This document shows positions 2,757-61,398 of a DNA stretch of 64,000 nt, piece by piece. Position 1 is the stretch's first letter, and every line of letters begins with the position of its first letter. Origin of the DNA: Naegleria gruberi (Eukaryota); NCBI GenBank assembly GCA_000004985.1, contig GG738845.1; one strand, written 5' to 3'. The translations under genes and the position numbers were made by a program. The notes beneath the pieces were generated by a model that was given only the letters and a program-made list of their open reading frames with translations, had not been told where the DNA came from and searched no databases.

Positions 2757-2860
2757 ATTATGTAACATTACAAATTGTTGTTATTAATAAATATTTCAAT
2801 TTCACTCTCCAAATTTCAATTTCACTTTGAAGCTCAATATCAAATTTTAACAAATAAAAA

Positions 2861-24556: not shown

Positions 24557-25999
24557 ATGCGTCCATTATTACTTGGCAAACACTCTACCCATTCTAATAG
24601 TGTAGGAACGTTTCAACAACAGGATAATCATCACCAATATATATATCCCAATAATAATAATGGCCTTTCGAATAATAATCAACTAAAATCCAATAGTCCT
24701 AATTCGTCTCATGATAACATGACGCCTCTCCTTTTAAAAAATAGAATGACAGCTCCTAAAGCAATTGATAAAGAAATTAGTAAATGGTCTTGTCAAGATG
24801 TTGGTATTTGGTTAGATTGGATGAAACTATCACACTTGAAACCGATATTTATTCAAAATCAGATAAGTGGAGATGAATTATTGGAATTAACGGATGCTGA
24901 AATAATTAATGATTTGAAAGTTAGGGACGAATATGAACGAAAGTTAATTAAAGAATTAATTGATAATAGGGAAGTTTGGATGAAACGAGGAAGTAAAAAA
25001 CTTTCAAATGATAGTTTGGATTCTTTGGAAGAATATCCGAAACCAATTTCACCCATTAACATGAGTCCACAAGCAGTGAAATATCAAGTTTTGAATCAAA
25101 AACCTATATTTCCCAATACAAAAAGTTCATTAGAATTGGATGAATTTTCAGATTGTGATGATTTGACAAGTGTTGGAGGAATATTTCTTGACAGATCAAC
25201 TATTGCTTCTCAAAAATTGGAAGTATTATTAGAAACTCTCTATAAGGATGTAGGAAATGTAAAATTCAAAGTTTACAGAGGTAGTGATATTTATCTGATA
25301 ACTCAAAAACGTTCTCAACTCTCATTCACCTCACTCAAATTGGAAATTATTGAGAGATATCAATGTGTCAAACCAACAATACTTTACAAGACGAGAGACG
25401 GTGATTTTATTATAATTAATAGGGACGAGGATTTGGCAAGAGTTATTTCTTCCTATCATCAGAATGGAGGCGATGTTTCTCAGCCAATCAAGTTACAAAT
25501 TGAAACTAATGATTTGCCAATTGGATTGATTACTGCAACATCAACAGGTACGAATAGCAACACAAATTCCAATGCCACAAATCAGATGAGCAATAATCAT
25601 CATAGTTTGCATAGTCCTCGGGAGTGGACTTATTCATCAGATCAATCTCAAAGCTCAACCAACAGCCTACCTCCAAATAATCAACTAGCTCAAAAATTAA
25701 TTGAATTGGAATTGGAAAATATTGAGAAAAATAATTCAATAAGAGAACTGGAAATCAGATTACATAATCAACAGGTTGAACATGAAAAGCAAACAACCTA
25801 TTCAAAATCTTTGCAGGACGATATTTCTACTCTCAAAATGCAACTCTATTCCTATAAGAATGGTACAGTGTTTAACCCATCGGGCTCTTTGAGCAAACAG
25901 GAAGAAATTAGTGAATATATCAAATTATGCAAGTCCTTACAATCATCACTCGCAACTGCTCAGAATAAGCTATTCGAATTACTTGGAAATCAATTGTAA
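24557..25999 (+). CDS. SAM-domain plus PB1-domain protein with a coiled-coil C-terminus.
   Basis: The SAM domain reads 'WSCQDVGIWLDWMKLSHLKPIFIQNQISGDELLELTDAEI'. A PB1-like region reads 'VKFKVYRGSDIYLITQKRSQLSFTSLKLEIIERY...ILYKTRDGDFIIINRDEDL'. The first ATG is at 24557. Confidence 0.5.
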   Translation: MRPLLLGKHSTHSNSVGTFQQQDNHHQYIYPNNNNGLSNNNQLKSNSPNSSHDNMTPLLLKNRMTAPKAIDKEISKWSCQDVGIWLDWMKLSHLKPIFIQNQISGDELLELTDAEIINDLKVRDEYERKLIKELIDNREVWMKRGSKKLSNDSLDSLEEYPKPISPINMSPQAVKYQVLNQKPIFPNTKSSLELDEFSDCDDLTSVGGIFLDRSTIASQKLEVLLETLYKDVGNVKFKVYRGSDIYLITQKRSQLSFTSLKLEIIERYQCVKPTILYKTRDGDFIIINRDEDLARVISSYHQNGGDVSQPIKLQIETNDLPIGLITATSTGTNSNTNSNATNQMSNNHHSLHSPREWTYSSDQSQSSTNSLPPNNQLAQKLIELELENIEKNNSIRELEIRLHNQQVEHEKQTTYSKSLQDDISTLKMQLYSYKNGTVFNPSGSLSKQEEISEYIKLCKSLQSSLATAQNKLFELLGNQL

Positions 26000-26017: not shown

Positions 26018-27196
26018 TTAATAACAAATAAATGACTTTTCAGGATCAAAAGCATTTTGAGCACTAATTGCCTTTGGTTGCCACTCATCCTCCACAAAAC
26101 TTCCTTCAACCTTAATTTGCTTTTTTTCTCCTTTTCCATTCTTTGATGCAAAGAGGAAAGATCCAGAACTGTTTGCTGGTGTTTGGTTAAAGTTCTTAGA
26201 TTCATAGGTAGTCCCACCAGGCATCACCCAAGTACCAGTCTTGATTTGACCATTCTCCCAATGTGCTGCCTTATATGTACTATTATTTGAAGCAAAGTAA
26301 TAGTCACCCACTCCATGTTTTTGGTTATTCTTCCATTCTCCATTGTAAATGTCACCATTTGCATAGTACATAATACCCTTTCCGTGCTTTTTACCATCAA
26401 AGAATTGGCCAATATACAGAGAACAATCCTTATACCTCATGATTGATTTATCATTGAGTTCAATTGATGGATGTTCTGTATTTTCAGGCACATGTTTTGG
26501 TTCAAGTACAGTTTGTTTCTTGTCCTTACAATAGGATCCTTCATAGAATGGATAAGGCCCATATTTAAGAACATAAAAAACTCTATTTGGTCCAAGTTTC
26601 TTGAATGGTTCCAATGTTGAAATGTAATCTGAAGCTTCTTGTAACTTCAAGTCATCATTTAATTCCTTAGCAAGTATTTCTTTAACTTTTTCATCTTCCT
26701 TCATTTTGACAATTTCCAAATCAACTGGTGGTATCGATTTTTGGGAGTTGTGTTGAGAGTAGTAAATATAGAGACAATCCTTTCCATGTTTCAAGTTTTG
26801 TTCGTAACCTCCCTTGTATTCATCAAAGTTGGAATAGATTGAACAACCCAATCCTTCTCTTTCATTAAATTCATTTACTCCACCCGAATATAATCCAAGT
26901 CTCAAAACCATTTTAATTCTGTTCTCATCTAATTGTTTTGATTCAACAGTAGATGCAATAAATCCTTCCTTATCAAAATCATCCTCAGCTGGCTCATCTT
27001 CTTTTTCACCATCTTCCTTATCCTTTTCTTTTTGATGGGCCTCCCTAGCACTAATATACAAATCCCAAATCATTTTATCAACTTTTTTAAATCCAGTCTC
27101 TTCATCAACCTCATCATAATTGTATGTTGGGGCTTTTACTTCTTCTTCCTCTTGTTCAGAGTTGTTTTCATCATCGTCATCTACGTCTCTTGGCAT
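26018..27196 (-). CDS. MORN-repeat protein with an acidic N-terminus.
   Basis: The reading contains 'YIGQFFDGKKHGKGIMYYANGDIYNGEWKNNQKHGVGDYYF'. Confidence 0.5.
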   Translation of the reverse strand: MPRDVDDDDENNSEQEEEEVKAPTYNYDEVDEETGFKKVDKMIWDLYISAREAHQKEKDKEDGEKEDEPAEDDFDKEGFIASTVESKQLDENRIKMVLRLGLYSGGVNEFNEREGLGCSIYSNFDEYKGGYEQNLKHGKDCLYIYYSQHNSQKSIPPVDLEIVKMKEDEKVKEILAKELNDDLKLQEASDYISTLEPFKKLGPNRVFYVLKYGPYPFYEGSYCKDKKQTVLEPKHVPENTEHPSIELNDKSIMRYKDCSLYIGQFFDGKKHGKGIMYYANGDIYNGEWKNNQKHGVGDYYFASNNSTYKAAHWENGQIKTGTWVMPGGTTYESKNFNQTPANSSGSFLFASKNGKGEKKQIKVEGSFVEDEWQPKAISAQNAFDPEKSFICY

Positions 27197-27223
27197 TTTT
27201 TTTGAATAGATGTTGTAAATTTA

Positions 27224-27267
27224 TTTGGCGCCAAACATTTTAAAATCATTTCAGCGCCAAAAAAAAA
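27224..27267. promoter_or_regulatory. A 70-bp bidirectional promoter carrying a palindromic E2F/DP-like site TTTGGCGCCAAA (27224..27235) and a second GCGCCAAA half-site (27252..27261).
   Basis: The site lies between the divergent ATGs of the MORN gene (27196, minus strand) and APC1 (27267, plus strand). The same motif is found upstream of other cell-cycle genes in the window. Confidence 0.5.
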
Positions 27268-30200
27268 TGAAAAATCATCATCACAATCCTGTTCTCACGC
27301 TCATCAACAAGGAACCTCTATCACTTTCGAATAGTAAATACACACTAACGAAGATATTCACATTTATAAACAAGGGAAGAGAGGAGAGGATCGTAATTCA
27401 AATACCTACGGAATTAAATAACAAGGAATTAGAGCCTCCACAAGTTATTTGGTATTATGGAAGTTCGGATGCTCTCCGAGTACACAGAAAATATAAATTT
27501 AGCAGTCATCAACATCATCCGAATATTCCTATTATTCCAAATGATGTTTGCTTGTGTACTTTCTCATCAAATGAAAAAATGTTGTGTATATTATTGGATA
27601 ATTCAAGGATTGAAATTTATGGCGAGTCTGGAAGATCTTTTATTGTTTCTTTGCCATGTAAAATGAGCAAAATTTGGAGCTTAAATGATGAATATTTATT
27701 AGTGGAACGGAAAATAGTCAACCCAGATCCATCTAGCACTATTCCTATTATTTATTATTTAACACATCCATTGGAAGATTTAAAAGCTCTTGCATCTGTT
27801 GTTGATAATCAATCAAATGATATGGAAGATGATATATTAATGACTGAGCCAATATATGATTACTTGAAAAGTGAAGAGGAAGTCATTGCTTACATATTTT
27901 TGAACTTGTTCATGATTACCTTCAATACTAACACCAAAATATTGTCAATATATTCAATAATGGAAGAAGGTTTTGTTCAAAGAATACCATATGCTGATAA
28001 TAATGATTTCTCAGACTATTTGAAATGCAATTTGGAAACAGTTCAAATTTCAATCTTTCCACAAAATAATTTTGGTACTGAGTATACCCTCTTTTTGATT
28101 AATAACAATAGCCTATTTGCTTTCACCATCTTCAGAAATGATCTAGAAGAGGCATTCATTCTTAAACCAAAATTTTTCAAAGAAGGTGTTGTATCCATTT
28201 CTGAATTTAACTACCCTCTAGCAAATGAAACACTTTTTAATGGAAATATAGAGGGATTCTTACATTTGATGATCTTGGCAGAAAATTCCAATTACTCTTT
28301 AATATTAGTTTTGGATGGTGAGTTCATCATGTGGGAACAAGCCCTTGACAGTCAATATTCAAAGATTGAACATCTTGTGGACAATAGACTCTCCCTTAAA
28401 ACAGCCGACTACTCTCTAAGATATAGACTTGATATTTGCCCTAATTCGAAACTAGTACAAGATTGTCTCTCAGTCTTTCAATCAGTCCTAACAAAGGACT
28501 TATTTTCGAGTATTTTCTACGACTTTCAAACATCTAGGATTGGAAATGCTAATGACTGGGATATTTTCATTAACCTGTTAAATTATTTAACATTTGGAGT
28601 TGAACCAAATAGTCCCACCACTCAGGAATCTGATCCATGGAAATTAATGGAACTTATCCATACAAAAAATAGTGCCACATCAAGTCAAATATTCAATACA
28701 TCCAAACTGAGAACAAACAAACAGGTACTTATCCAAAACTTGCCTTTGATTCTGATTTCAATACACTTACTCTACGAAAATTACAAATTACACACCTCAG
28801 AGTGGAACAATGTAGAAACTCTTGTCAGATACCTTTTCAATCTTTCAAACAAATTGAAATGGAAAGCATTTAGTGAAGTTTACCAAAGGGACTTTAATTA
28901 CACCTTGACTTTGACAGTGCCATCTAATCCAGTTGACATTGAGTTCCCGGTTGTTGAAAAGATTAAATTCCTCAACAATTACTACACAACTGGTATAATT
29001 GCACCAACCATTTTAGGATGGATTGAAGAAATATTTATCAATAAGAGTTTAAATGTTGATCTAATGTATCCTTCAATCACTAATTGCTCGGCAACAAGTC
29101 TTTCAAGAAAGATTTGCAGGTTTTTCTCTTTACTTGTTACCAATAAGGAAGATCTTTACAATGTTGAGAGCAATAATAACAGTGTTTCAATGGATATCAA
29201 CGGTTTACAAACAGGGCTACTTGATTTACCTCCACACGAACGTGTAGCAATAGCTTTATTACAAGAGGGCTTCTCTAGTGTTGATGGATTGAGTTTTTTA
29301 CCATTTAGTGTCTCACTTCCAATAAGAGAGGCTTTAGTACAATGTAGAAACAGCATTCAACCTGTAACCAGAACCCCTGAATACTGTAAGCTCATAGAAA
29401 GAGAGGATTTGGCTGTCAATAATCAAGCCCAATCTGAATCCGAAGTTCTACTGGATGGAAATCAAATCGTTTCAGAATTTACAAAAACGCTGGGAACAGG
29501 AGTCCCTTCTATTGCCAGTAATCAAGATTCTGAGGATGATATAGGTCATATGATTTGGAGTGAAGATAGGAGACTTGAGCAAGTGAGTAAAATGCTAGAT
29601 AGTAGTATACCTACTCAGATTCAAAAGCATACACTTCAACTTAGCGAGGATGATTTGGATGGTTTTGATCCTAACGATGCACCAGAATTACAACGTAAAA
29701 TCCTACTCAACATGAAGCAACAAGTTCTTTCATTCTGTATTGGAAGAGGAATGCTTTCCATTGCCAGCAAGAAGAATAATAATTCAGGATCTGTTTCTAA
29801 TGATACCACGAGTAATATTTTGACAATACCTCCAATAGTTTTATCATCCAAACTTAAAAGAAATAGAGCTATTATGACCATAGATGTATCAAAAATAGTA
29901 CCAGAAAATGAAATTTCTGCCTCGTGCAGCACTCAATGGGCTGAATTCCATAATGGGGTGGCCTCTGGATTAACAATTGGAAGAGACTCTAAAATAACGA
30001 AAGAGTGGATAATGTTCCACAAGCCAAACAAGAGGGCTGGACAGTTTATGAACAAGACTTCAAACGATAGTGTCTCTCATGCTGGCCTCTTATTAGCCTT
30101 AGGTCTACAAGGTCATTTGACATGTCTTGGACCAACTGATATTTATGGCTATCTTCAACAGAGACACGAAGCAACCACTATTGGAATTTTACTAGGATTA

Positions 30201-32462
30201 TCATGCTCATATATTGGAACACAAGACCAATATATTACAAGATCACTTTCACTCTATGTTCCTTCCCTTGTTGTTGGAATGAGCGATATGGAAATGCCAA
30301 TGGAAGTAAGTGGTGCTGCACTTGTTGGCATTGGTTTATTATATATGGGAAGTGGTCATAGATTTATGACTGAAGTACTATTGGGCGAATTGGCAAGACC
30401 ACCAAACGATAATTCCACCAATTCAAGAGAAAGTTATTCACTTTCAGCAGGTTTTGCACTTGGATATGTCCACTTGGCCAAGGGTGCCAATGGAAGCAGT
30501 CATGAACTCAAAATGGATCAAAGACTTCTTTCCTACATGACTGGAGGAAGTAAACGACCAGAGTTTGACACATTTGCAATGATGGCATCCAAATCAAAGT
30601 CTCAAATGATACAAAAAGGAGGAAAAGGTCAAAATACTAGTGAGTTTGTTAACACCTCTTGTTCAAGAATTAAGGAAAATGAAAAGTTTGTCAATGTGGA
30701 TGTGACTGGACAAGGTGCTTGTATTGCTTTAACTTTGAAATACTTGAAAACACACGACCTTACAATTGCCTCTGAAATGAAAGTTCCAGACACCAAATAC
30801 ATGTTGGACTATGTCAGACCAGATATGATCATTTTGAGAATCGTTGGATCGTCTCTAATTATGTGGGATCATATTAAGAATACTGATGAATGGATCAAAT
30901 CCAAACTTCCAGGTGTACTGAATAATACTGCACCAATATCTATTGTTGAGAGCAGTGAACTCTCAAAGATATATGCCTATTCTGTTAGTGGATGTTGTAT
31001 GGCAATTGGATTGAAATATGCTGGATCCCACGACACGAAAGCATACAATCTCTTACTTGGACTGTTACAACAAGTCATCAAATCAAAACTCAAAATATTC
31101 TTGAATAATGAACAAATGCAAATACCATACTCTGTCAATCTAGACAAATACACAACTGATAGAGCTACAACTGTTATTCTATTGAGTATTTGTTGTGTGA
31201 TGGCTGGCAGTGGTAACATTGAAGTTATACGTATCATCAAATCATTAAGACAGAAATATGTAGCATCACCAGCTACTCAACAGGGAGGATATGGCATACA
31301 TATGGCTTTGTCTATGTCTTTGGGTTTACTCTTCTTGGGAGGTGGACGTTGTTCACTGAGTACAAATGATAGATCTATTGCTGCTCTTCTTTGTTCTATT
31401 TACCCAATTTTCCCTCAAACTACAACTGACAATAGATACCATTCACAAGCCCTTAGACACATGTATATTCTTTCCACAGAAAATAGACTTATAGAAACTG
31501 TCGATATTGACACCAAAGAAAGATGTCACGTACCAATTCAAATAGAAACTACTCATGGCGATGTTCTACACAAACTTTCTCCTTGTTTGATTCCAGAGGC
31601 TCATCTTCTTAAAAAGATTACAACCATGAATGAGAGGTACTATCCTCTAACTATTAGTGAATTCCCACTTAAGAGCCATATTATTAATGTAAAGAAGAAA
31701 TCAGGATATTTGACTTACAAGGATGATCCTAAAGGAATAAGATCAACTGTACATTCTAACTTTATATCAAACCTGGTTGATCAAGATCCTGAATCTCTTG
31801 TTAAATTATTCGAAAAAATGTCCTATCACACTCATATTGGACCATATGTGAAATATAGAATCTTTACTCAGAATAACATCTCATCGGATGATAGAAATAT
31901 TGCCAACGCCATCAATTCCCTCTCACTTAATGAGCATACCTATGGAAATGTTGCCCTCATGCTCTATCACGCTCTAACTGAGTCGCTGACAAATGATTGC
32001 CCAGATGTTTTGTACCTATTTGAGTGTATCCTTAATTCTCTAAAGATCATCACAGACTCTAAGAATTGCACTCTTTCCAAATCAATTTATACCTCATGTT
32101 TTAAACAACTGTTCTCGTACTATAGTTCGAGGGATCATTTATTACAATCGAGAAATTCTACAATTGAACCAATCAAGCCCCTTATTTCTATTCACTTTAT
32201 AGAATGCGTAAAATCGTATTTGGATAATTATTTCTCTTCACTTTCAATAGATTGGACAAAATTGTCAAACAAGGAACTAGGATTGGGAGCCTATTGCTTA
32301 TTCTACAACCTTCCTTACCTTCACCTCTTGAAAGATTGTATCAAACAAAATCAAAAAGTCATGAACAGAGAGGCCCTTATTATTTACCTTCTTTCAATCC
32401 TTTCTCATTCCTCCATCACTCTCCCACACATTGAAAATATTATTTCATACTTGTCATCATAA
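27267..32462 (+). CDS. Anaphase-promoting complex subunit 1 (APC1).
   Basis: A 1730-aa protein with PC repeats: 'HAGLLLALGLQGHL', 'IGILLGLSCSYIGT', 'GAALVGIGLLYMGSGH' and 'SAGFALGYVHLAKG'. Confidence 0.6.
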   Translation: MKNHHHNPVLTLINKEPLSLSNSKYTLTKIFTFINKGREERIVIQIPTELNNKELEPPQVIWYYGSSDALRVHRKYKFSSHQHHPNIPIIPNDVCLCTFSSNEKMLCILLDNSRIEIYGESGRSFIVSLPCKMSKIWSLNDEYLLVERKIVNPDPSSTIPIIYYLTHPLEDLKALASVVDNQSNDMEDDILMTEPIYDYLKSEEEVIAYIFLNLFMITFNTNTKILSIYSIMEEGFVQRIPYADNNDFSDYLKCNLETVQISIFPQNNFGTEYTLFLINNNSLFAFTIFRNDLEEAFILKPKFFKEGVVSISEFNYPLANETLFNGNIEGFLHLMILAENSNYSLILVLDGEFIMWEQALDSQYSKIEHLVDNRLSLKTADYSLRYRLDICPNSKLVQDCLSVFQSVLTKDLFSSIFYDFQTSRIGNANDWDIFINLLNYLTFGVEPNSPTTQESDPWKLMELIHTKNSATSSQIFNTSKLRTNKQVLIQNLPLILISIHLLYENYKLHTSEWNNVETLVRYLFNLSNKLKWKAFSEVYQRDFNYTLTLTVPSNPVDIEFPVVEKIKFLNNYYTTGIIAPTILGWIEEIFINKSLNVDLMYPSITNCSATSLSRKICRFFSLLVTNKEDLYNVESNNNSVSMDINGLQTGLLDLPPHERVAIALLQEGFSSVDGLSFLPFSVSLPIREALVQCRNSIQPVTRTPEYCKLIEREDLAVNNQAQSESEVLLDGNQIVSEFTKTLGTGVPSIASNQDSEDDIGHMIWSEDRRLEQVSKMLDSSIPTQIQKHTLQLSEDDLDGFDPNDAPELQRKILLNMKQQVLSFCIGRGMLSIASKKNNNSGSVSNDTTSNILTIPPIVLSSKLKRNRAIMTIDVSKIVPENEISASCSTQWAEFHNGVASGLTIGRDSKITKEWIMFHKPNKRAGQFMNKTSNDSVSHAGLLLALGLQGHLTCLGPTDIYGYLQQRHEATTIGILLGLSCSYIGTQDQYITRSLSLYVPSLVVGMSDMEMPMEVSGAALVGIGLLYMGSGHRFMTEVLLGELARPPNDNSTNSRESYSLSAGFALGYVHLAKGANGSSHELKMDQRLLSYMTGGSKRPEFDTFAMMASKSKSQMIQKGGKGQNTSEFVNTSCSRIKENEKFVNVDVTGQGACIALTLKYLKTHDLTIASEMKVPDTKYMLDYVRPDMIILRIVGSSLIMWDHIKNTDEWIKSKLPGVLNNTAPISIVESSELSKIYAYSVSGCCMAIGLKYAGSHDTKAYNLLLGLLQQVIKSKLKIFLNNEQMQIPYSVNLDKYTTDRATTVILLSICCVMAGSGNIEVIRIIKSLRQKYVASPATQQGGYGIHMALSMSLGLLFLGGGRCSLSTNDRSIAALLCSIYPIFPQTTTDNRYHSQALRHMYILSTENRLIETVDIDTKERCHVPIQIETTHGDVLHKLSPCLIPEAHLLKKITTMNERYYPLTISEFPLKSHIINVKKKSGYLTYKDDPKGIRSTVHSNFISNLVDQDPESLVKLFEKMSYHTHIGPYVKYRIFTQNNISSDDRNIANAINSLSLNEHTYGNVALMLYHALTESLTNDCPDVLYLFECILNSLKIITDSKNCTLSKSIYTSCFKQLFSYYSSRDHLLQSRNSTIEPIKPLISIHFIECVKSYLDNYFSSLSIDWTKLSNKELGLGAYCLFYNLPYLHLLKDCIKQNQKVMNREALIIYLLSILSHSSITLPHIENIISYLSS

Positions 32463-32936: not shown

Positions 32937-33158
32937 ATGGAAACTCAACAAATGACTCCTGAGGTTTACCTCTCACTCTCAAGAAGAAGATGCTCCACAG
33001 TACATGCTCTTCCACAAGATCCACAATTAGGTGAAGCTATGTTTACCTCATTCACATTTCCTCCAAGAAAACCAGGTCATGATGTGGTTGATGAGGTCTT
33101 AGAGGAGATGGAAGAGATGAATCTCAATGAAGAAGAACAAGACTCGACGGATCAATAA
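32937..33158 (+). CDS. Small acidic hypothetical protein of 73 aa.
   Basis: It is the only ORF in a 1.1-kb gap. It has an acidic C-terminus and no recognisable family. Confidence 0.25.
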   Translation: METQQMTPEVYLSLSRRRCSTVHALPQDPQLGEAMFTSFTFPPRKPGHDVVDEVLEEMEEMNLNEEEQDSTDQ

Positions 33159-33516: not shown

Positions 33517-33533
33517 ATTTTGGCGCCAAAAAA
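33517..33533. promoter_or_regulatory. E2F/DP-like site TTTTGGCGCCAAAAAAG.
   Basis: It lies 32 bp upstream of the ATG of the BUB1-like gene. Confidence 0.45.
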
Positions 33534-33564
33534 GTTGTTAAAATGAAAATTTAAAATAAAAAAA

Positions 33565-36099
33565 ATGAGTTCTCAACTGCACTTGAAACGTCAACAAAAA
33601 CAAATTCAAGATGCAATCGATAAATACTACTCTGGAATATCTAATGACAATGCTATGGATATAAAAAAGGATACACAATTATTATCTGGTCTTGTTGGAT
33701 ATCTTTCCGGATTTCAAGAGAGTGATTTGGCCTTTGAAACAAGAGGTGATGTCATTGAGAGATTTTTCGAAAAGTATTATAACAGTTTTATGAATGGTGG
33801 TAATTATCCACCTGAATTATATTCCGATAAAACAATTTGGGATTTGTGGCTTTTATATGCAGAGGCTCATACCAATGATCCTATTCCACACATTCAAACT
33901 CTACTTGAATTTGCTCCTAAATATCCAAAGTTATTTGAGGTCTGGGCCACTTGGTCGAGAAGAACAGGACGTATTGATGATGAATTAACAGCATATGAGG
34001 AGGCTGAAACGAGAGGTGTTGTATCCGAATTGTTATCGAGCATGAAACAAGACAGATCCGAATATTTCCAACCTCCACCATCACAACAACAAACAATTCC
34101 TGAACCTAAGATTAAAACCACCACCACCGTAACTAATACTGTAATCAAACAACCTGTTGCACATCAATCTGTGGAAACATTGGTTAACAATCCAAGACCA
34201 CCTTCACCAACCCCACAAAATTATTTGATTGGATATGACAAGAATCTAATCTTTACTCCAGGTGCAGAGTTTACTTTTGAGGAATTGAGAGCAATGCACT
34301 ATTTAAATACCACTGATTTAATGATTAATCACAAACAAACAATACCTAGTTCATCATCAATTTCACACAACCAATCTTTAATTGAACAACCTAAGCATCA
34401 TGATTCCTCTATTCTTATGAATAAGAATTTTGAAAAACCATCAAGCAAACCTCAACAAAAAGACGACGACTTTGAATTTGATTTTTCAAGTGATATTACC
34501 ACAGTACATGCAAGAAAATCAATGGCTGCAACTCCTACTTCTTACGCTCAACATACTATTGCCAGCTTTTTTGAGGGAACCATTGATACTGAAATTGAAA
34601 ACAATTACTTTGAACAACGAAAGTTCCGTAAAGTGCAAGAACAAGAGAAAAAGAGAAAACTTGATGAAATTTCACAATCAACAAATAATAATTTTGCCAT
34701 ACATGAAGATACAACAGCTGAAATTAAGAAATCTAGGCTGACAGCTCAACCATCCAGTAGTACCTTTAAAATACCATCTCAGACATCTTCTGGCTTTCAA
34801 AATACAAGTCTTCAACAAGAACGTTCATTCTCTCAAAGAAATAGATCCCTAAGTGCATTCCATCAGTTTAATGATACAGGAGATGAATCAGGTCTCTATT
34901 TTGGAGATGAATCTAACATTTCAAAAACTTTCATTGTTGATAGACAGCAAGAAAGTGCGATATCATTGGAAGGAATATCAGCCCTTATTTCAAAATACAC
35001 AAATAATGGAGTAATCAATCCGTACATGGAAGATATACGAAAAGTGTATACTAATATTGTTAACATAACTAATTGCTTTAAAGACAGTCGTATTACTGAC
35101 TGTAAAGGAGTTGAATCTATAGATTTAAAAACTATTCTGCTGGAGCTAAGTAAAAAGAAGAAAGGTATCGACTATAATACTCAAACATTAAGCTTGAAGT
35201 TGAGTACAAAGACATACCTTGCCGAAGAAGCACTATCTGAACATGTGATCAAAATACAGGATGTAAGAAGTAACAATGGAATTAATACCAAATCATTTGC
35301 CTTGAAATTTAAGCCACCAAATGATTTCTATGAGTACTATGTGATCGATCAGCTGTATAGAAGAATACCAGAGAAGGAAAATCATAGATTCCCAAATATT
35401 CAAAGAGTTTATGTTATGGATAATGATATTCTATTGATGGAAAACCTTGTAAATAACATTACTCTCACACAGGCAATATCACAAGCAAAAATTGAGGAAA
35501 CAATTGCTTTGTACTATACTTTAGAACTTCTCAATATTTTGCAAACTCTGCATAATAAGGCAAACATTACACACAATAATATTTCTCCATCTAATTTATT
35601 GCTTTTAAATGAAGATACTGATCTATCTGATTGGAGTATAGATGGAAAGGGTTGGAGTAATAAGGGTCTACTGCTCACCAACTTTTCCAGGTCTATTGAT
35701 TTAGAACTATTTCCAAACCGTGTTGTTTTCCAAAGTGAACCCAAAACATTACCAGAAGTTTTCAAATCATCAATACAATATCCAAACAAGTGGAAATATG
35801 CATCAGATACTTGGAGTGTTTGTAACATCATCCACCAAATGCTTTTTAAGAAGGACATGGAGGTAACAACGAACGCTCAAGACAAGTATCTAATTAAGGA
35901 ATCCATAAGGAGATTCTGGAAATTTAGAGATGTTTGGCAAACCATTTTCGATACTTTACTAAATCTTGACCAGACAAAGAGTCCAGATTATTACCAATTA
36001 ATAGAAATGTGTCAACAGGCGTTAGGAACAAATGGAGACACAGTTAAAGCTCTTTTCTTGAGATTCATTGTCTCACTTTCTACTCAATTAAAACACTAA
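33565..36099 (+). CDS. BUB1/Mad3(BubR1)-like spindle-checkpoint protein with a degenerate C-terminal kinase-like domain.
   Basis: The N-terminal Mad3/BUB1 homology region 'LYSDKTIWDLWLLYAEAH...LFEVWATWSRRTGRIDDELTAYEEAETRGV' matches the 'YSDPRFLNLWL...FYISWA' pattern. The C-terminal kinase-like region carries 'HNNISPSNLLL' in place of HRDLKPEN, so it is probably a pseudokinase. Confidence 0.5.
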   Translation: MSSQLHLKRQQKQIQDAIDKYYSGISNDNAMDIKKDTQLLSGLVGYLSGFQESDLAFETRGDVIERFFEKYYNSFMNGGNYPPELYSDKTIWDLWLLYAEAHTNDPIPHIQTLLEFAPKYPKLFEVWATWSRRTGRIDDELTAYEEAETRGVVSELLSSMKQDRSEYFQPPPSQQQTIPEPKIKTTTTVTNTVIKQPVAHQSVETLVNNPRPPSPTPQNYLIGYDKNLIFTPGAEFTFEELRAMHYLNTTDLMINHKQTIPSSSSISHNQSLIEQPKHHDSSILMNKNFEKPSSKPQQKDDDFEFDFSSDITTVHARKSMAATPTSYAQHTIASFFEGTIDTEIENNYFEQRKFRKVQEQEKKRKLDEISQSTNNNFAIHEDTTAEIKKSRLTAQPSSSTFKIPSQTSSGFQNTSLQQERSFSQRNRSLSAFHQFNDTGDESGLYFGDESNISKTFIVDRQQESAISLEGISALISKYTNNGVINPYMEDIRKVYTNIVNITNCFKDSRITDCKGVESIDLKTILLELSKKKKGIDYNTQTLSLKLSTKTYLAEEALSEHVIKIQDVRSNNGINTKSFALKFKPPNDFYEYYVIDQLYRRIPEKENHRFPNIQRVYVMDNDILLMENLVNNITLTQAISQAKIEETIALYYTLELLNILQTLHNKANITHNNISPSNLLLLNEDTDLSDWSIDGKGWSNKGLLLTNFSRSIDLELFPNRVVFQSEPKTLPEVFKSSIQYPNKWKYASDTWSVCNIIHQMLFKKDMEVTTNAQDKYLIKESIRRFWKFRDVWQTIFDTLLNLDQTKSPDYYQLIEMCQQALGTNGDTVKALFLRFIVSLSTQLKH

Positions 36100-37702: not shown

Positions 37703-38545
37703 TTATACAAGTTTTGAAATGTTTTTGTGTAAATTGTCTTCCGAGAAGGATGAGATGAGAGAACAGTTGAATTCATCATAATTAATAACTCTATTTGTTT
37801 GGCCCATTAACATGAGCAAGTCGCCATTCCTTATAACACTCTCCTTAATGATGGTTTTTCCATCATAGTCATACTTAAGATTTGAATCATTACACAGTAC
37901 TTTCATATGATTGACTCGAGCAAAATCTTGAAGTGAATCAAGGAGAGGACTTAACTCTCTCGAATGTAGATAAAGAGTTCGTTCTCTTTGCAAGATGGTC
38001 AGTAATTCGTCCTTTTGGAGTGCTTTCAGTTCTCCACCATTGAGTAGACGATCCGATAGATCAATTTGTATCAGTTCTCGAGTGGAATTATCTCTCAAAT
38101 CTCTTTGGAAAATGAAATCCAATGGCTTTTTGAAAAGTAAATATTCCACCAATACTTGATTGGAAAACATGGATTCCTTCTCAACACGATAATGAAGAGC
38201 AACAATGTCTCTATCACTCCTACTACTTGTTGGTTGCTTCATTTCTTTCAAATTGGGAGCACAGAATTGTGGCTTTTCCAGTATGATATCATTATCTAAA
38301 CTTGATGTCTTGATGAATCCATATATCTTGGTCTTTCTTCCATCGAGTAAAAGCTCATCCCGTGGCAGCGTTTTATATTCATCCTTTATTTGAGTGAGAA
38401 GTTGATCTACATATCGTGATCGGAAGAGTGAAAAATTTCTTGTTGAGTTATGACGACCATGAAATATTATGGATGACGATGATGATCCATGTAAGATGTT
38501 GTATTTAATAATTAAATTGTTGCTTCCAGTTGTTAGTCTTTTCAT
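37703..38545 (-). CDS. Hypothetical protein.
   Basis: A 280-aa ORF with an A-run ATG. It is divergent from the F-box gene and the two share an E2F-like site. Confidence 0.45.
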   Translation of the reverse strand: MKRLTTGSNNLIIKYNILHGSSSSSIIFHGRHNSTRNFSLFRSRYVDQLLTQIKDEYKTLPRDELLLDGRKTKIYGFIKTSSLDNDIILEKPQFCAPNLKEMKQPTSSRSDRDIVALHYRVEKESMFSNQVLVEYLLFKKPLDFIFQRDLRDNSTRELIQIDLSDRLLNGGELKALQKDELLTILQRERTLYLHSRELSPLLDSLQDFARVNHMKVLCNDSNLKYDYDGKTIIKESVIRNGDLLMLMGQTNRVINYDEFNCSLISSFSEDNLHKNISKLV

Positions 38546-38600: not shown

Positions 38601-38613
38601 ATTGGCGCCAAAC
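38601..38613. promoter_or_regulatory. E2F/DP-like site ATTGGCGCCAAAC in a divergent promoter.
   Basis: It lies between the ATGs at 38545 (minus strand) and 38769 (plus strand). Confidence 0.45.
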
Positions 38614-38768: not shown

Positions 38769-39911
38769 ATGCTTACAAATCTCCCTCAAGAAATTCATCA
38801 CGAAATTTTCACCTATCTAGACTATGTGGGTGAATTGTGTCGATATAAGAAACTCATGATTCCTCGATTTAATCTCTCGGAGTGGACAAGAGAGGAATTT
38901 GAGAGTAAAATTATGGATTCTAATGATGAAATTTGCACCGATCAACTCGATGTTAACTTTGATAAGAAACCACTCTTTTTAACTTGTAAGGCATTCTACC
39001 ATTCCGTACAGAGTTTTAAACCACTCTCTTTACATTTTAAAATTTTAGGAAGAAGTCAGAGTCCAAAACATGAATTTGATTTTTATAAATCGTTTTTGAT
39101 ATCTTTGTTTTCAAGTCATGATGATAAGAAACCTAAGAAGACTAATAGAGGTGATTATTCAGAGATGATATATGAATTTATTCAGAATATTGAAAAATTC
39201 ACAAATTCATCTTTTACCTTTGAAAATGTTGAACATGTAGAATTTTGGAGCAGTGAATTGAAATTCTTTTCAAATTGCGATTTAAGCAAATTGATTTTGA
39301 GTAATTTTTACAATGTAAAAGTTGTAAATGTTAACTTTAGCGGAAATTACAGTAAAACTTTGCATTTTAGAGTTATAGAATGTCAAAGATTGAACAAATC
39401 ATTTGTTGGACCTAAAATACACTCTAATTTCAATAGTACAAGAATTAATGTGGACGATTTAGATAGAATCTTCTCTCCAGGCTATATTTTGAATATAGAG
39501 GCGTACTTATTGAGTGCTATTGAAACAAACTTTCAAATAGTATTCGATTACATATTGAGTAGATATAGGATTGACATTGAATATTTCATTTATCTGTGTA
39601 ATGTACAACCGAATTTTCTGTTTGGTGAAGACAAGAGTTTAGAATCAGTTTTGCAAATGCTACAAAAACTTCATAACAAGTATCCAAAATTTAAATTGTT
39701 TCACTTGCCAATTTATTCAGTGAATTATTTCAAATTGCTTCCAAGGTATTCATTTGTGGATTTGGATTTATCAAGAAATTTATCATTGAAGTTTGTTAAA
39801 ACAATTTGGAGCAACCCTCAATTGAAAGAAATGACCATTACAAGGAGTGGAAATGACCTTTCGGATTGGGGAGAGTTAATTAATTCGCTAGAATTCAATC
39901 GTGGTTGTTGA
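38769..39911 (+). CDS. F-box-like protein, otherwise hypothetical.
   Basis: The N-terminus reads 'MLTNLPQEIHHEIFTYLDYVGELCRY', and the ATG has an A-run context. Confidence 0.5.
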   Translation: MLTNLPQEIHHEIFTYLDYVGELCRYKKLMIPRFNLSEWTREEFESKIMDSNDEICTDQLDVNFDKKPLFLTCKAFYHSVQSFKPLSLHFKILGRSQSPKHEFDFYKSFLISLFSSHDDKKPKKTNRGDYSEMIYEFIQNIEKFTNSSFTFENVEHVEFWSSELKFFSNCDLSKLILSNFYNVKVVNVNFSGNYSKTLHFRVIECQRLNKSFVGPKIHSNFNSTRINVDDLDRIFSPGYILNIEAYLLSAIETNFQIVFDYILSRYRIDIEYFIYLCNVQPNFLFGEDKSLESVLQMLQKLHNKYPKFKLFHLPIYSVNYFKLLPRYSFVDLDLSRNLSLKFVKTIWSNPQLKEMTITRSGNDLSDWGELINSLEFNRGC

Positions 39912-40046: not shown

Positions 40047-40138
40047 TGGTGAGTTGGTCGAGTGGTCTAAGACGACACGTTAAGGTATGATTAATACCGT
40101 GTTCCGCAAGGGCGTGGGTTCAAATCCCACACTCATCA
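40047..40138 (+). tRNA. tRNA-Leu(AAG) with an 11-nt intron, roughly 40084..40094, after position 37.
   Basis: The acceptor stem is GGTGAGT/ACTCATC. The D-arm GTCGAGTGGTCTAAGAC is characteristic of Leu. The anticodon stem ACACG/CGTGT flanks the loop TTAAGG plus the intron. A long variable arm and the T-arm GTGGGTTCAAATCCCAC complete the cloverleaf. Confidence 0.75.
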
Positions 40139-40607
40139 AATTTTGTGACCATCAATTGTGAGAAACTTTAAATACTGATCGATAACACTCTCAGATATCT
40201 CTAAAGTGGTATCGATAGTCATTTCAAATTTATTTATCCATTAAATGATTATAAATTAATTTTATTATTAATTATCAAATTATTTATTGATAATTTAAAT
40301 GGATTAAAATCATTAATTGAATTAAATATTTCACATTTTGATTTTAACATCTTAAATTCTAATAGTATATTAAATAATTCTTGTGCTTTAACTAGTATAC
40401 AAAAACAACACATTATCCCTAGCATTATCCACCCGATTATAAATTATATTAAGATAATATAAAACCAAATAAATCATTTACAAAAGCACATTATATGTAT
40501 TCATTATCTATTGCAATGATTCAATATATTAATATTTTCATCCAATTAGTTTGTAAAAAATCCAAGTTACTAAAAGAGTTAATTGTAAACAAAGTGGATA
40601 GAAAAAA

Positions 40608-42602: not shown

Positions 42603-45600
42603 ATGTCTGATAGCGAGGAAGAAGTTTTGAAAAACGAATCATCCTCTGAGGCAGCATCAGAAGAGGAAGAAGTTCAAAATCAAGACGATGTCATGGAAGA
42701 ATCAGAAGAAGAGGTTATTACCACTCGTAAAACTAGGGCATCACGAAATGTACGTTAGTAATATTCAAATAATTTAAATTAATATTTCATCGTGATGATG
42801 GTTTCGCTTATTCACAAAATTCCATAATTAAATAGAACTATAAGGAGCCAAGTTCTGAAAGTGAGGAAGAAGAAGTAATACGAGCACCTGTTCGTTCACG
42901 AAGAGGCAGTGCAAGAAAGGTATGTATTGTTGATTATGGGTTTATAACATTGGATCTTTGACCTCTTGTCAACACAACATTAGAATTATAATGAAGACGA
43001 AGCTTACAAAGCATTGGATGATGATGATATGGACGATTCTAACGAAGTAGTTGTCAATAACGACGATGACGAAGAAGCAGAAGTAGAAGCACCAAAAAGA
43101 CAACGTAAAATCAGAAGAAATGTTGATCGGGGCTCAAGAACAAAACAATCAAGCACAATTGGTGCAGGAGACTATGAAATCCCAAAGAGAGACCTCAGAA
43201 CAAGATCCAAGAAGATTGACTACTCTGAGGAAACACAAACCGTTGAAGAACAAGAAGATGAAGTTGTTCCAGAAGAACCTCAAGAAGAGGAGGAACCTTC
43301 TGAAGAGGAAGAAGAAGTTAAACCAAAACGTACAGTCAGAAGAAGAGCAACAACAACAACAAAACCTAAAGCAAGAACTACACGTGGTGGACGTCGTGGT
43401 GCAAAATCCAAAAAGGTTGATTCGGATGATGATGATGTTGTTGTTATGGATGATGATTCTGATGAAGAAGAGAGCTCTTCATCCGAAGAGGAAGGTGAAA
43501 CAACAGAAGAACTCGGTGCTGATGAAGGACCTACCGTTTTTATGGATCAAGATAAAGACGATGTAATAGAATTAATTTTAGCTTGTCGAGTAAAGAAAGA
43601 AGAAGAAGAAATACAAGATGACGAAGAAGAAGGTTCCGAAGAAAAGAAAACTAATAGTGGCGAGGAAACAATAGAATATTTGTGTAAATATAAGAACAAA
43701 TCTTACTTGCACTGCGAGTGGATACCTAGGTACGAGCTGGATGATGATATTCAAACCAGAAACAAAATCAATAGATTCAACAAGCAATATGATGTCAAGT
43801 ATTTTGAAGGATTGGAAGAATATTTCAATCCTGAATTTACAGAAGTAGAGCGTATCATTGATCGTGGTGTTTGGGATGACTCTGAAGTTTATTGTGTAAA
43901 ATGGAAAGGTCTTACATATAGTGAATCAACTTGGGAATTTGAAAATAAGATTGAAGACAAGGAAAAGATTGAGCAATACAAGAGGATTAATAAATTGCCA
44001 ACACCAGAAGATAGAAGAATACCTGCAAGACCAGCTCCTCACAAATTCAAAAAGTTAGAAGAATCACCATCATTTAGAGATGGTAATCAATTGAGAGAAT
44101 ACCAATTAGAAGGTTTGAATTGGTTGGTATTTTGTTGGTATCAGAGAAGAAATTCAATTCTTGCCGACGAAATGGGTCTCGGTAAAACTGTTCAAACAGT
44201 TGCAACACTTGAATATTTGAGAGCTTTTGAACATATTAGAGGTCCATTCATAGTTATTGCACCTCTTTCCACTGTTGAACACTGGAAGAGAGAGTTTGAA
44301 AATTGGACAGATATGAATGTTCTTGTATTCCATGGTAATACTCAATCAAGAGAGGTAATGAAGAATCATGAATTCTTCTTCAAACATCCAAAGACTGGTA
44401 ACTTAATTTATCATCAAAAGACATACAAGTTTAATGTACTCATTACAACTTATGAAATTGTCATGGCTGAATCATCTTACCTTTCAAAGATACCTTGGCA
44501 ATATTTGGTTGTTGATGAAGGTCATAGATTGAAAAATCACAACTCAAAATTGGCACAAATTCTTAAGAATTTTAACGCTGTACACAAACTTTTGCTGACT
44601 GGTACTCCTATTCAAAACAATCTAACAGAATTGTTCTCATTGCTACAATTCTTAGATCCTGAGACTTTTTATGATCTTGATGTTTTCTCAGAGGAATATG
44701 GAAATTTGGGTGAGTCTGGTTCTGAGAAATTGGAAGGACTACATAAGTTAATTTCTCCATACATTCTTAGAAGATTGAAGGAAGATGTAGAAAAGAGTAT
44801 TCCTCCAAAGGAAGAAATTGTCGTTGAAGTTGTCCCAACCTCAATTCAAAAAGCATACGAACAGGCTATTTTCAAGAGAAATAGAGAATTTTTAATGAAG
44901 GGTGTCTCCAAATCACAAAATGTTCCAAAGTTAAACAATGTTCTTATGGAATTGAGAAAAGTTTGTAACCATCCATTCTTGATTAGTGGTGCTGAAGAAA
45001 ACATTACCAGAGGTATGAGTGACGTGGAAGTTAATGAGGCTCTTATTAAATCAAGTAGTAAGATGATTCTTGTAGACAAGCTCTTGAGAAAATTGAGAGA
45101 AGGTGGCCATAAGGTTCTTATTTTCAGTCAAATGGTTCTCGTATTGAACATTCTTGAAGATTACATGAGGTATAGAAACTTTACCTATGTAAGACTCGAT
45201 GGTACCATTAAGGGATCAATCAGACAACAAGCTATTGATAGATTTAATGATCCTAACATTGATACATTTGTATTTTTAGTTTCCACCAAAGCAGGAGGCG
45301 TAGGTATTAACTTGACTTCTGCTGACACTGTCATTATTTATGACAGTGATTGGAATCCTCAAAATGACTTGCAAGCCCAAGCTAGATGTCACAGAATTGG
45401 TCAAACCAAGGAAGTCAAGATTTATCGTCTTCTTACCAAGAATACAAAGGAAAAGGAAATCTTTGAAAGGGCTTCAATGAAGTTAGGTTTAGATAGAGCT
45501 GTTTTGTCATCAAATAATGAATTTGTCCAATCCACTTCCAAGTCTAGTACGCAAAACAAACCAGCACTTGAAAAAGAAGAAATTGAACTTTTACTAAGAC

Positions 45601-48431
45601 ATGGTGCTTATTCTGCTTTCAAGATTGATGATACAGAAGAACAAAAATTGTTGATGGACGAAGATATTGATACCATCATGGAAAGAACAGCAACTATTGT
45701 CAGATATGATCAAGCTAAACCATCAGAATCTAATGGATTTTCTAACTTTTCTAAAGCTACATTCTGCTTCTCTGAAGACATGGAATGGGAAAATTTACTT
45801 CCACGTGAAAAGACAGCTTCAGGTTTGATGAAATTATTGAGTGAAGATTCTTCTTTGGATACTGAAGAACAAAAAAAGGAATATCTCAATGACGTAAAGG
45901 CACTTGTAGATATCAAGATTCATGAAATTGAAAAGTTCAAATATAAGCCAGATGATGAATTGGCAACTCTTCTTACTCAAATGATGTATGCCAGATTGTT
46001 AGATGAAGATCACAAACAACAAGCAAAGGCATGGTTATCAATTCTTGAACAACCAAGGTTGAGAAATGGTTCAACTCGTAATGAAGAGTCTGATCAATCA
46101 GATGACGACTCTAAAGAGACTGTCTCAAAGAAAAAGGCTGGAGGTTGGTATAAGGCTGAAAGACAAAGATTCCAAAAGTCTTTATTGGAAGTTGGTTGGG
46201 GTAAATGGGGAACTATTAGAGAGAACAAACTTCATGCTCATACTATTGAAGATATTCATTCTCTTGCTGAAAGTTTTGTCAGTCAACTTATTACTATGTG
46301 TGATGGCGAAAATGATGTCGACTTCCTCAAGATTTTGTTGCAATCCTCAACAGTGCCTGAAGATAATGACGATTTACCAAGTTCTTCCTTAAAGATTGAG
46401 CTCAAAAACACACCAGCAAGAGCTGGTGATATCTTGAAGGTTCATTTACCTAAAGATGCTGATCTTTCCACTTCAAGTATTGAAATTATTAAGATTGCTC
46501 AACAAGAAGCAAGAGTCTCCAAGAAGAAGAAAGCCAAATCTCAAGCAAGCAGTTCCAAGAGTTCCGGTAAGAACCTTTGCGTTAGATTCTACGAATTGAA
46601 GGAAAAGGATAAGGAAGGTGATGTTTGTGAATTATATGCTCCTGGTGTTGGTGGTGAATATTTTGTAAGGTTGAATTATAACGGACTTTCCAAGGCAAGT
46701 AAATCATTCGAAGTCCAAGGTGTTCATCCAGTATTAGAAGATAAGGAGTGGATTGAACAAGCCAAAAGAGCTGTAAAGACTTGGGTCAAAAAGCTCAAGT
46801 TTAATTTGCGTCTCACAAAGATTCTTGAAGCTTTTACAAAGTTGACCACTGATAATATTCCAAAGGTGGGCATTAAGGCTCCTACAGACTGGTGGGATAG
46901 GGAATGCGATAGGGACTTATTAGTTGGTTTTGATTTATATGGCTATGGTCGCTTTGATGAAATGAAAGAAGACACCTCTCTTTGCTTTAAGGAAAAACAT
47001 GAAGAGCACATGAAAAAGGCAAAGAGTAGAAAGGAAAAGAAGGATGCTGGCTCTTGGCCAACTATTGCTGTGGTTAACAAACGTGCTAACAAACTCATGG
47101 AATTATTAGTTAAGGAAAAGGATATTTCTATTCTTGCAGAACTTAAATCTAATGAAAATGATAATGATGATTTGGCTTTTGAAGAAACTGAAATTTCTGA
47201 ACCAAAAACAATTGTTGACTCTTGGAGTAAGAGAGAAAAGGCAGATATCCAAAGGACACTTATCAACTTTGGTTTATGTCCAGCTGAATCATCTGGTGAG
47301 CCTAACTATGCCAAAATTATTTCATTGGCCAATTTGAGAAAAACTGAAAGTGCTGTAAAGACCTACGTTACTCACTTGGTAAAAGCAGCAAAAATACTTA
47401 ACAATGAAGAAGAAGAGAAGGATACTAAAGAATCCAAGAAGAAAGATTCAAACAAGCCAACAACTGATGATTTGGCTCCAGGTACTGCAAAGAAATTAAT
47501 TCAAAGAATTGATATAATGAATAGTCTTTATACACTTGTTTATCCAAACTGGGATGAATATAAGAGCAAGATGAAATACTTGAAACCAACAGGTTCAGGT
47601 TTACCTAAATGGTGGAAGTCAGAAGCACACGACAAGGAACTTATCAGAGGTATCAAGAAACACGGGTTTGATTTTAAGAAGTTGTTTGAAGATAAGGAGT
47701 TCAAGTTTGGATCAAAGGATTCACCAAGAGAGGGTCTACTCCTTTCACGTATTGAAGAAATTATTTCTTTATTAAGAAAGATTGATGTTCAAGGATCACC
47801 TTCAAAAGCTAAATCGGCTTGGAACTTTACTCCAAAGAAGAAACATGTACTTCTTAAATCACCACCACTCAAGGAAAAGTCTGCTCCAAAAAGAAAAGTC
47901 AAGCGTCAAACAACTCTTGATTTCAAGAATACTGAAGATACAAGCGATCCAATTGAAGATTCAAGTGACAGAGATGAGGACAAGATGCAAGATGATGATG
48001 TTAAGCTATCTAAATCTGAATCCTCAGAACCATCTTCATCACAATCTGACGTGCCAACCATTGTTGAGGATGTTTTGAAGAAGAAGATTCCAAAGAAGAT
48101 CCCAAAGAAGGAAGAATCACAACCAGAAGCCTCCAGCAGTTCTAGCAGTGGAAATGGTACACCACTTAAAAGAAAGAAAGAAGATCATCACGAAGATGAG
48201 GATCATCATACCCCAAGAAGAGGTGAGTATGAGCCAAATGATAAGAAGAGAAAGATGGGTTCCTCTCCAGCAGATCACAAATATTCTCCATCTCACCATA
48301 GAGAAAACAGAGACTACAGAGACCGTGATGATAGAAGAGACAGTAGAGATAGAGAGAGCTATCGTGATGATAGAAGAGACAGTAGAGAGTACAGAAGAGA
48401 CAGGGATGGCAGAGACTATCACAGAAGGTAA
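42603..48431 (+). CDS. CHD1-type chromodomain-helicase-DNA-binding ATPase. Three exons: 42603..42749, 42836..42919 and 42984..48431.
   Basis: Tandem chromodomains are present ('EYLCKYKNKSYLHCEWIP' and 'VYCVKWKGLTYSESTWE'). SNF2 motifs 'LADEMGLGKTVQT' and 'VVDEGHRLKN' and helicase C motifs follow. The C-terminus has SANT/SLIDE-like regions and an RD/RS-rich tail. Two acidic 5' micro-exons are joined by introns 42750..42835 (GTACGT...AG) and 42920..42983 (GTATGT...AG), both in phase 0. Confidence 0.75.
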
Positions 48432-61349: not shown

Positions 61350-61384
61350 TTTTTTTTAATAATAAATATTATTGTGTGATGTAG

Positions 61385-61398
61385 ATTTGGCGCCAAAT
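61385..61398. promoter_or_regulatory. E2F/DP-like site TTTGGCGCCAAATT.
   Basis: It lies 36 bp upstream of the RbBP5 ATG at 61349 on the minus strand. Confidence 0.45.

Follow-up and report, generated by a model that had tools for sequence, protein, structure and literature searches.

The 70 bp that separate the start codons of two divergent genes in Naegleria gruberi, one encoding a MORN-repeat protein and the other subunit 1 of the anaphase-promoting complex (APC1), appear to form a real and extremely compact head-to-head promoter region, in which two promoters abut and each carries its own predicted site for the E2F family. We put the probability of this reading at about 60%. It comes from the analysis of a 64-kb stretch of DNA (64,000 nucleotides; the window), which is AT-rich, with about 33% G+C, and gene-dense. 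The two genes and the elements between them are as follows.

26018-27196, minus strand: MORN-repeat gene NAEGRDRAFT_56558, probably RSP1-like; open reading frame, Pfam MORN with E=1.9e-13
27197-27266, no strand: intergenic gap between both start codons, 70 bp
27201-27206, minus strand: TTCAAA (TTTGAA on the plus strand), weak candidate element 4-9 nt upstream of the MORN ATG
27213-27218, minus strand: TTACAA box, candidate initiator-like element on the MORN side of the GC core and 8 nt away from it
27224-27235, no strand: palindrome TTTGGCGCCAAA, in which two TTTSSCGC matches overlap; equivalent in position to the MORN-proximal site of the other species
27254-27261, minus strand: second E2F consensus GCGCCAAA, reading TTTGGCGC on the minus strand; equivalent in position to the APC1-proximal site
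27259-27266, plus strand: run of eight A directly ahead of the APC1 ATG, the genome's general start-codon context
27267-32462, plus strand: APC1, 1731 aa, a single uninterrupted open reading frame

Both start codons can be read directly from the sequence, that of MORN as the reverse complement CAT at 27194-27196 and that of APC1 as ATG at 27267-27269, and both are supported by orthologues. The MORN product is 100% identical to the N. gruberi predicted protein XP_002683613 and opens with a Met-Pro (MPR or MPK) common to four species, N. fowleri, N. lovaniensis and Willaertia among them; in a metagenomic Naegleria, the protein has the same initial Met (M only). It matches the PDB chain 9e5c_2a, 'RSP1', nearly end to end (E=4.7e-35), including the non-MORN N-terminal NYDEVDEETGFK, and is probably a radial-spoke, therefore flagellar, rather than a cell-cycle protein. 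The APC1 frame contains the Pfam domains Apc1_MidN, APC1_3rd, ANAPC1 and APC1_C. Its NCBI model (NAEGRDRAFT_45282, XP_002683303, 1410 aa) begins at Met105 of the 1731-aa frame and has some 260 C-terminal residues, in which the APC1_C domain lies, swapped for a short spliced tail at about 32937-33158. Because residues 1-104 are conserved in three other Naegleria, this model looks truncated at its N terminus and the ATG at 27267 looks the better start, and the 70-bp figure thus stands; orthologues also back the long 1731-aa frame. At the other end of the MORN gene, just 18 bp lie between its stop codon (26018) and a convergent SAM/PB1 gene (24557-25999), and the two 3' ends therefore overlap or are extremely short; the synteny of this SAM-domain neighbour extends to N. 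fowleri and N. lovaniensis.

With their starts 70 bp apart, MORN and APC1 fall within the <1 kb by which bidirectional promoters are defined, and the gap must house both promoters and both 5' UTRs, unless initiation takes place inside the neighbouring gene. There is no RNA gene in the gap; the sole tRNA/Rfam match of the window, at 40047-40139, is an intron-containing tRNA (Rfam tRNA, 47 bits; anticodon not named by ARAGORN) with a TTTCCCGCG element about 55 bp upstream. The distance from the palindrome to the ATG is 27 bp for MORN and 31 bp for APC1. Together with the second site, the palindrome brings the TTTSSCGC matches in the gap to three, on both strands of 27224-27235 and on the minus strand of 27254-27261, and the two copies of GCGCCAAA start 26 bp apart. 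The GCGCC core of the second site ends 8 nt ahead of the APC1 ATG; either the APC1 5' UTR is under about 8 nt, or this APC1-proximal site lies within the transcript. Most open reading frames in the window have 5-9 A directly ahead of the ATG, often as TCAAAAAA-ATG (27259-27266, 33556-33564, 61350-61358), and such A-runs suggest a general start-codon or initiation context of this genome, together with very short 5' leaders. Between the TTACAR box and the MORN ATG, an alignment by eye places a TTCRAA block in four of four Naegleria sequences; we hold this element with low confidence, the word being frequent in AT-rich DNA.

The original prediction, which had set a perfect E2F/DP palindrome between a MORN-repeat gene and APC1 with 70 bp from ATG to ATG, is borne out as to the spacing, the palindrome and the identity of both genes, the latter through Pfam MORN and the four APC1 domains. 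It had also described a half-site 16 bp downstream of the palindrome. The distance between the two elements is in fact 18 bp (27236-27253), and the second is no half-site, TTTGGCGC on the minus strand being a full TTTSSCGC match. That essentially nothing else lies in the gap was slightly overstated, given the conserved TTACAA box, the recurring TTCAAA/TTCRAA and the A-runs.

Across the window, these sites are far from random in number and in place. The 12-mer TTTGGCGCCAAA has three copies in 64 kb and none in dinucleotide shuffles. The consensus TTTSSCGC is matched 10 times, against 0.92 expected, a count reached by 0 of 100 shuffles, and GGCGCC occurs 4 times, against 0.37 expected. All four GGCGCC are non-coding, in a window of which 20% is non-coding, and all stand 30-58 bp upstream of an ATG; by our own estimate, the chance of four in four coming so near to a start (60 bp or less) is about 1e-6. 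When 5-mers were counted over the 70 bp ahead of 36 open reading frames in the window, GGCGC/GCGCC came out as the top-enriched one (25-fold), and TTACA is enriched just 2-fold. The E2F-type sites all lie 5-60 bp upstream of an ATG, a distance counted to the start codon. The flanks of the four palindromes are unrelated, with 28-45% identity, and the palindromes thus represent a discrete 10-12-bp element and not a repeat family. The sites outside the MORN/APC1 gap are as follows.

33519-33530, no strand: palindrome TTTGGCGCCAAA, 34 bp upstream of a BUB1-like kinase gene (33565-36099)
38602-38612, no strand: TTGGCGCCAAA, one base shorter, in a 223-bp divergent gap
58098-58106, plus strand: TTTCCCGCC, with the likely true ATG (58133) of an uncharacterised gene 26 bp downstream
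61386-61397, no strand: palindrome TTTGGCGCCAAA, 36 bp upstream of an RBBP5/Swd1-like WD40 gene

In the PDB, every one of the top matches to the 844-aa BUB1-like protein is a BUB1 kinase domain (E=2e-16, over the C-terminal kinase domain), and Pfam detected no Mad3/BUB1 N-terminal domain in it. It is probably the Naegleria BUB1/MadBub checkpoint kinase, an assignment made via the kinase domain. By eye, its N-terminal region bears a resemblance to the Mad3/BUB1 TPR. The RBBP5/Swd1 (COMPASS) WD40 homologue runs on the minus strand from 61349 down to 59834 in two open reading frames, with a short intron (GTAGGT...AATAG) at about 60924-60967. Of the two genes beside the site at 38602-38612, an uncharacterised one on the minus strand (37703-38545) has its ATG 58 bp away, and a weakly F-box-like one (38769-39911) is at a distance of 159 bp. 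The site at 58098 is the only TTTSSCGC match that is apparently coding, the mechanical start of its frame being at 58055; the A-run context and the TTTCCCGCC site make 58133 the likely true ATG. A promoter for this gene could then be accommodated in the roughly 105 bp that follow the stop codon of the methyltransferase gene upstream.

Weaker forms of the motif, GGCGG/CCGCC, stand 36-49 bp upstream of three further open reading frames, and with these variants counted, about a quarter of the genes in the window are motif-bearing; an LRR gene at 48516 has GGCGG-N9-TTACAA upstream. In its strict form, the motif is absent from the tRNA synthetase, glycosyltransferase, GTPase, methyltransferase, pseudouridine synthase, cwf18 splicing factor and CHD-type remodeller genes of the window, and neither a putative RWP-RK transcription factor (62384-63031) nor the CHD-type chromodomain helicase (43029-48431, 1800 aa) has it within 70 bp of the ATG. 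Among the genes recognised in the window, two are clear mitotic regulators, namely APC1 and the BUB1-like kinase, and both have the perfect palindrome. The motif-bearing set is otherwise mixed, with RSP1-like, RBBP5/Swd1-like, weakly F-box-like and uncharacterised genes, and the association with gene function is one drawn from a handful of genes in a single 64-kb window.

Conservation was followed in loci of 13-25 kb from N. lovaniensis (L001), N. fowleri (L002 and L006), Willaertia magna (L003) and a metagenomic Naegleria (L005). The head-to-head arrangement of MORN and APC1 is kept in N. fowleri (two assemblies), in N. lovaniensis, where a LINE has come in, and in the metagenomic Naegleria; in Willaertia magna, MORN does not adjoin APC1. 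E2F-like cores in these orthologous loci are nearly confined to the MORN/APC1 gap, strict TTTSSCGC is matched only there across L001-L005, and the sites have been kept in N. fowleri, N. lovaniensis, the metagenomic Naegleria and Willaertia while their flanks diverged. In N. fowleri, the gap measures 213 bp; on its MORN side, TTTTCGCGCC stands 46 bp ahead of the gene, and on its APC1 side, GGCGGG stands 9 bp from the ATG. This gap contains two of the three E2F-like cores in 25 kb, and our own Poisson estimate of finding at least two there by chance is about 4e-5. In N. lovaniensis, all three cores in 13 kb are within the gap, with CCCGCC 37 bp upstream of MORN. The LINE of this species (L001, 1022-5811; endonuclease and reverse transcriptase, 1526 aa) sits between APC1 and MORN, flanked by a target-site duplication of 18 bp, TTTTTTGCATGGCGCCTT, through which the APC1-proximal E2F-like site is present twice, and without the LINE the gap measures about 208 bp. 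In N. fowleri and in pre-LINE N. lovaniensis, each gene thus arranged has a site near its own ATG, and the two sites are about 150 bp apart. The metagenomic Naegleria has GGCGCC and CCCGCC in a gap of 81 bp, and Willaertia magna has GGCGCC 22 bp upstream of the MORN ATG, with APC1 not a neighbour. The gaps of N. gruberi and of the metagenomic Naegleria look like compressed forms of a two-promoter region of about 210 bp.

The surroundings of each site are also conserved. On the MORN side, a core followed by N7-9 and TTACAR is found in N. gruberi, N. fowleri, N. lovaniensis, Willaertia and the metagenomic Naegleria, in an alignment made by eye, the automatic one having misplaced N. fowleri. On the APC1 side, CGCCA, 0-3 nt, A6-8 and ATG follow one another invariantly in N. 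gruberi, N. fowleri and N. lovaniensis; this comparison is one of Naegleria species, and that of the MORN side also takes in Willaertia. In N. lovaniensis, an out-of-frame ATG lies between the APC1-side core and the A-run, which hints that APC1 transcription in this species may start downstream of that ATG. Two further sites were seen in the compared loci. One, at 1614-1625 of the N. fowleri locus L006, is TTTCGCGCGAAA, a perfect palindrome of the E2F type but of another sequence, about 500 bp ahead of an uncharacterised gene (2120-3274), whose real start may lie nearer to it. The other, in Willaertia (L003, 5517-5560), is a GGGCGCCGG placed 24 bp ahead of the ATG of a 165-aa gene that diverges from MORN, and the motif is therefore also present in Willaertia promoters beyond that of MORN.

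Two abutting promoters fit these data better than a single shared one, because the sites lie per gene in the gaps of about 210 bp and because Willaertia MORN keeps its site without APC1. The original prediction of a minimal cell-cycle promoter shared by two genes stands as far as a compact head-to-head region with a non-random E2F/DP consensus is concerned, but is not supported as regards a single shared palindrome; its cell-cycle label is plausible for APC1 and BUB1, the mitotic regulators among the carriers, but less evident for the RSP1-like MORN protein and the other, mixed carriers. One minimal bidirectional promoter, with the central palindrome shared and driving both genes through the cell cycle, would agree with the symmetry of the palindrome and its nearly equal distance from the two ATGs (27 and 31 bp), with the head-to-head pairing kept in four Naegleria lineages and with the enrichment of E2F4 sites in human bidirectional promoters (PMC3089461). 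We nevertheless regard it as unlikely: besides the separate sites some 150 bp apart in N. fowleri and pre-LINE N. lovaniensis and the site retained by Willaertia MORN alone, a radial-spoke-like protein and APC1 have no obvious common timing.

In the preferred arrangement of two abutting promoters, the palindrome TTTGGCGCCAAA and the TTACAA box 8 nt on would constitute the promoter of MORN, and TTTGGCGC on the minus strand, abutting the pre-ATG A-run, would constitute that of APC1. A Naegleria E2F-DP heterodimer, or the two-domain DEL/E2F7-8 protein, would bind the GC cores, and the bound factor would promote or position the start of transcription by RNA polymerase II at a distance of a few to about 15 bp. 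Initiation so near to the site would yield very short 5' UTRs, and an RB homologue could add repression. The palindrome, symmetric and about 30 bp from both ATGs, may also serve APC1, a role that the comparative data do not need.

The factors that such a mechanism calls for are encoded and conserved. The presence of E2F, DP and RB in Naegleria is already known from gene content, and Medina et al. 2016 (PMC4862756) list N. gruberi sequences for E2F, DP, DEL (E2F7/8-type) and RB in their supplement. An N. gruberi protein at NCBI with the Pfam domains E2F_TDP (PF02319) and E2F_CC-MB is 100% identical to NgruE2F, and orthologues occur in N. lovaniensis, N. fowleri, Willaertia and Acrasis. The DNA-binding domain of NgruE2F matches human E2F4 in the E2F4-DP2-DNA crystal 1CF7 with E=7e-25, and the 24 letters of its recognition helix are identical to those of E2F4 in that structure; NgruDP matches the DP2 of 1CF7 with E=1e-28, NIRRRVYDALNVLMA being identical. 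The winged-helix domains of E2F and DP are intact, and the DNA-contact motif RRXYD reads RRIYD in NgruE2F, RRVYD in NgruDP and RRIYD in NgruDEL. In 1CF7, RRXYD of both subunits touches the CGCGCG-type core, and the optimal E2F/DP site is the palindromic TTTSGCGCSAAA. Because the recognition helices of E2F and DP match the human ones and RRXYD makes the core contact, it is a reasonable inference that the TTTSGCGC specificity is conserved in Naegleria. Upstream of the N. lovaniensis E2F gene (L004), there is no E2F-like core, and we thus see no sign of the E2F autoregulation that is typical of animal E2F1.

Other readings of the motif itself have to be weighed against an E2F-family site in each of two promoters. 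GGCGCC/TTTSSCGC might be a general heterolobosean core-promoter or start-positioning element, bound by E2F or not, and with no cell-cycle periodicity. No other upstream word of the window is as enriched, its distance from the ATG varies little, the genes behind it are functionally mixed, and about a quarter of all genes in the window bear it once the GGCGG/CCGCC variants are counted; moreover, in Cryptosporidium parvum, E2F-like motifs stand upstream in 163 of 200 expression clusters with no particular pattern (PMC3734150), and a consensus match is thus no proof of cell-cycle control. However, most promoters in the window, those of housekeeping genes included, do without it, it is rare outside the focal gap in the 13-25 kb of the related loci, and both clear mitotic regulators in the window have it in perfect form, all of which leaves a general element a possible but somewhat doubtful reading. 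That the element is bound by a factor other than E2F, the match to the E2F consensus being coincidental, we consider quite improbable, since the match covers the full 12-bp optimal palindromic E2F site and extends beyond the GC core, since the orthologous variants (TTTCGCGCC, GGCGGG, CCCGCC) are all permitted by the E2F consensus, and since the recognition helices of E2F and DP match those of the human proteins; what speaks for it is that N. gruberi promoters and transcription-factor specificities appear uncharacterised in the literature searched. Chance occurrence or a dispersed repeat, to which only the small size of the element would lend itself, is scarcely credible in view of counts unmatched by shuffles, unrelated flanks and conservation across species. 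A dispersed repeat or transposon end was considered separately and is ruled out by the unrelated flanks of the palindromes.

A further reading concerns the MORN gene. That an E2F-family site, present from Naegleria to Willaertia, controls a radial-spoke (RSP1-like) flagellar gene is a very improbable proposition, but one with consequences. If true, E2F/DP or DEL would be part of the programme that activates flagellar and basal-body genes in the amoeba-to-flagellate transformation, and the pairing with APC1 would tie mitotic exit to the building of a flagellum. E2F4/5-MCIDAS acts in animal multiciliated cells, a role that such control of an RSP1-like gene would echo. Naegleria is without RFX, FOXJ1 and XAP5, and the factors that control its cilia genes are unknown according to a 2025 review (PMC12183034); the E2F family would thereby become a candidate regulator of cilia genes in Naegleria.

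More generally, the literature searched holds no description of a cis-regulatory element of any Naegleria protein-coding gene and none of an E2F site in Heterolobosea. Should the sites prove functional, both the recognition code of E2F and its tie to regulators of mitosis (APC1, BUB1) would reach Discoba, which would lend support to an E2F-controlled cell-cycle regulon in the last eukaryotic common ancestor. A first testable promoter grammar for Naegleria would also be at hand, namely GC core, N8-9, TTACAR, A-run and ATG. N. fowleri transfection vectors now use upstream fragments of about 1 kb, chosen blind (PMC12845041), and for these a defined 70-bp two-way promoter would be of use. E2F consensus sites in a compact protist promoter are a useful finding, not a surprising one, and overturn nothing.

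Several known systems resemble the one described here. The mammalian DHFR promoter has an overlapping inverted E2F site, TTTCGCGCCAAA, at its major start site; the promoter is TATA-less, and the E2F site lies directly at the initiation region. Its double E2F site is palindrome-like and 12 bp long, as is that of Naegleria, and the two differ at a single base. On the other hand, DHFR is a G1/S gene with a CpG-island promoter and Sp1 sites, whereas the Naegleria region is 70 bp of AT-rich DNA between coding regions. In the animal G2/M promoters of the CDE/CHR type (DREAM), a CHR (TTYGAA) stands 4 nt downstream of a GC-rich CDE. The likeness to Naegleria consists in mitotic genes of the APC/C and BUB1 class and in a GC-rich element with a TTTGAA-type element near the start. 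A canonical CDE/CHR is, however, ruled out in the gap, TTTGAA (27201-27206) being 20 nt, and not 4 nt, from the GGCGCC at 27227.

Among protists, the closest parallel drawn here is C. parvum, whose E2F-like motif 5'-TGGCGCCA-3' (DTTGSCGCCH, TTTGGCGGGAAV) was described by Oberstaller et al. 2013 (PMC3734150) and is the most over-represented and commonest upstream motif, with no particular expression pattern. Both organisms have the same core and variants, and both are protists whose compact, AT-rich genomes leave very little space between genes and encode E2F and DP. They are set apart by lineage, C. parvum belonging to Alveolata and Naegleria to Discoba/Heterolobosea, and by the reach of the motif, which is near-ubiquitous in C. 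parvum but confined in Naegleria to a minority of promoters, with the perfect palindrome at APC1 and the BUB1-like gene. Human bidirectional promoters, which are enriched for E2F4 binding (Lee et al. 2011, PMC3089461, citing Lin et al. 2007), likewise have E2F sites between divergent gene pairs. They are CpG islands with start sites <1-2 kb apart, whereas the Naegleria ATGs are 70 bp apart, and the comparison among Naegleria species suggests one site per gene and not a shared one.
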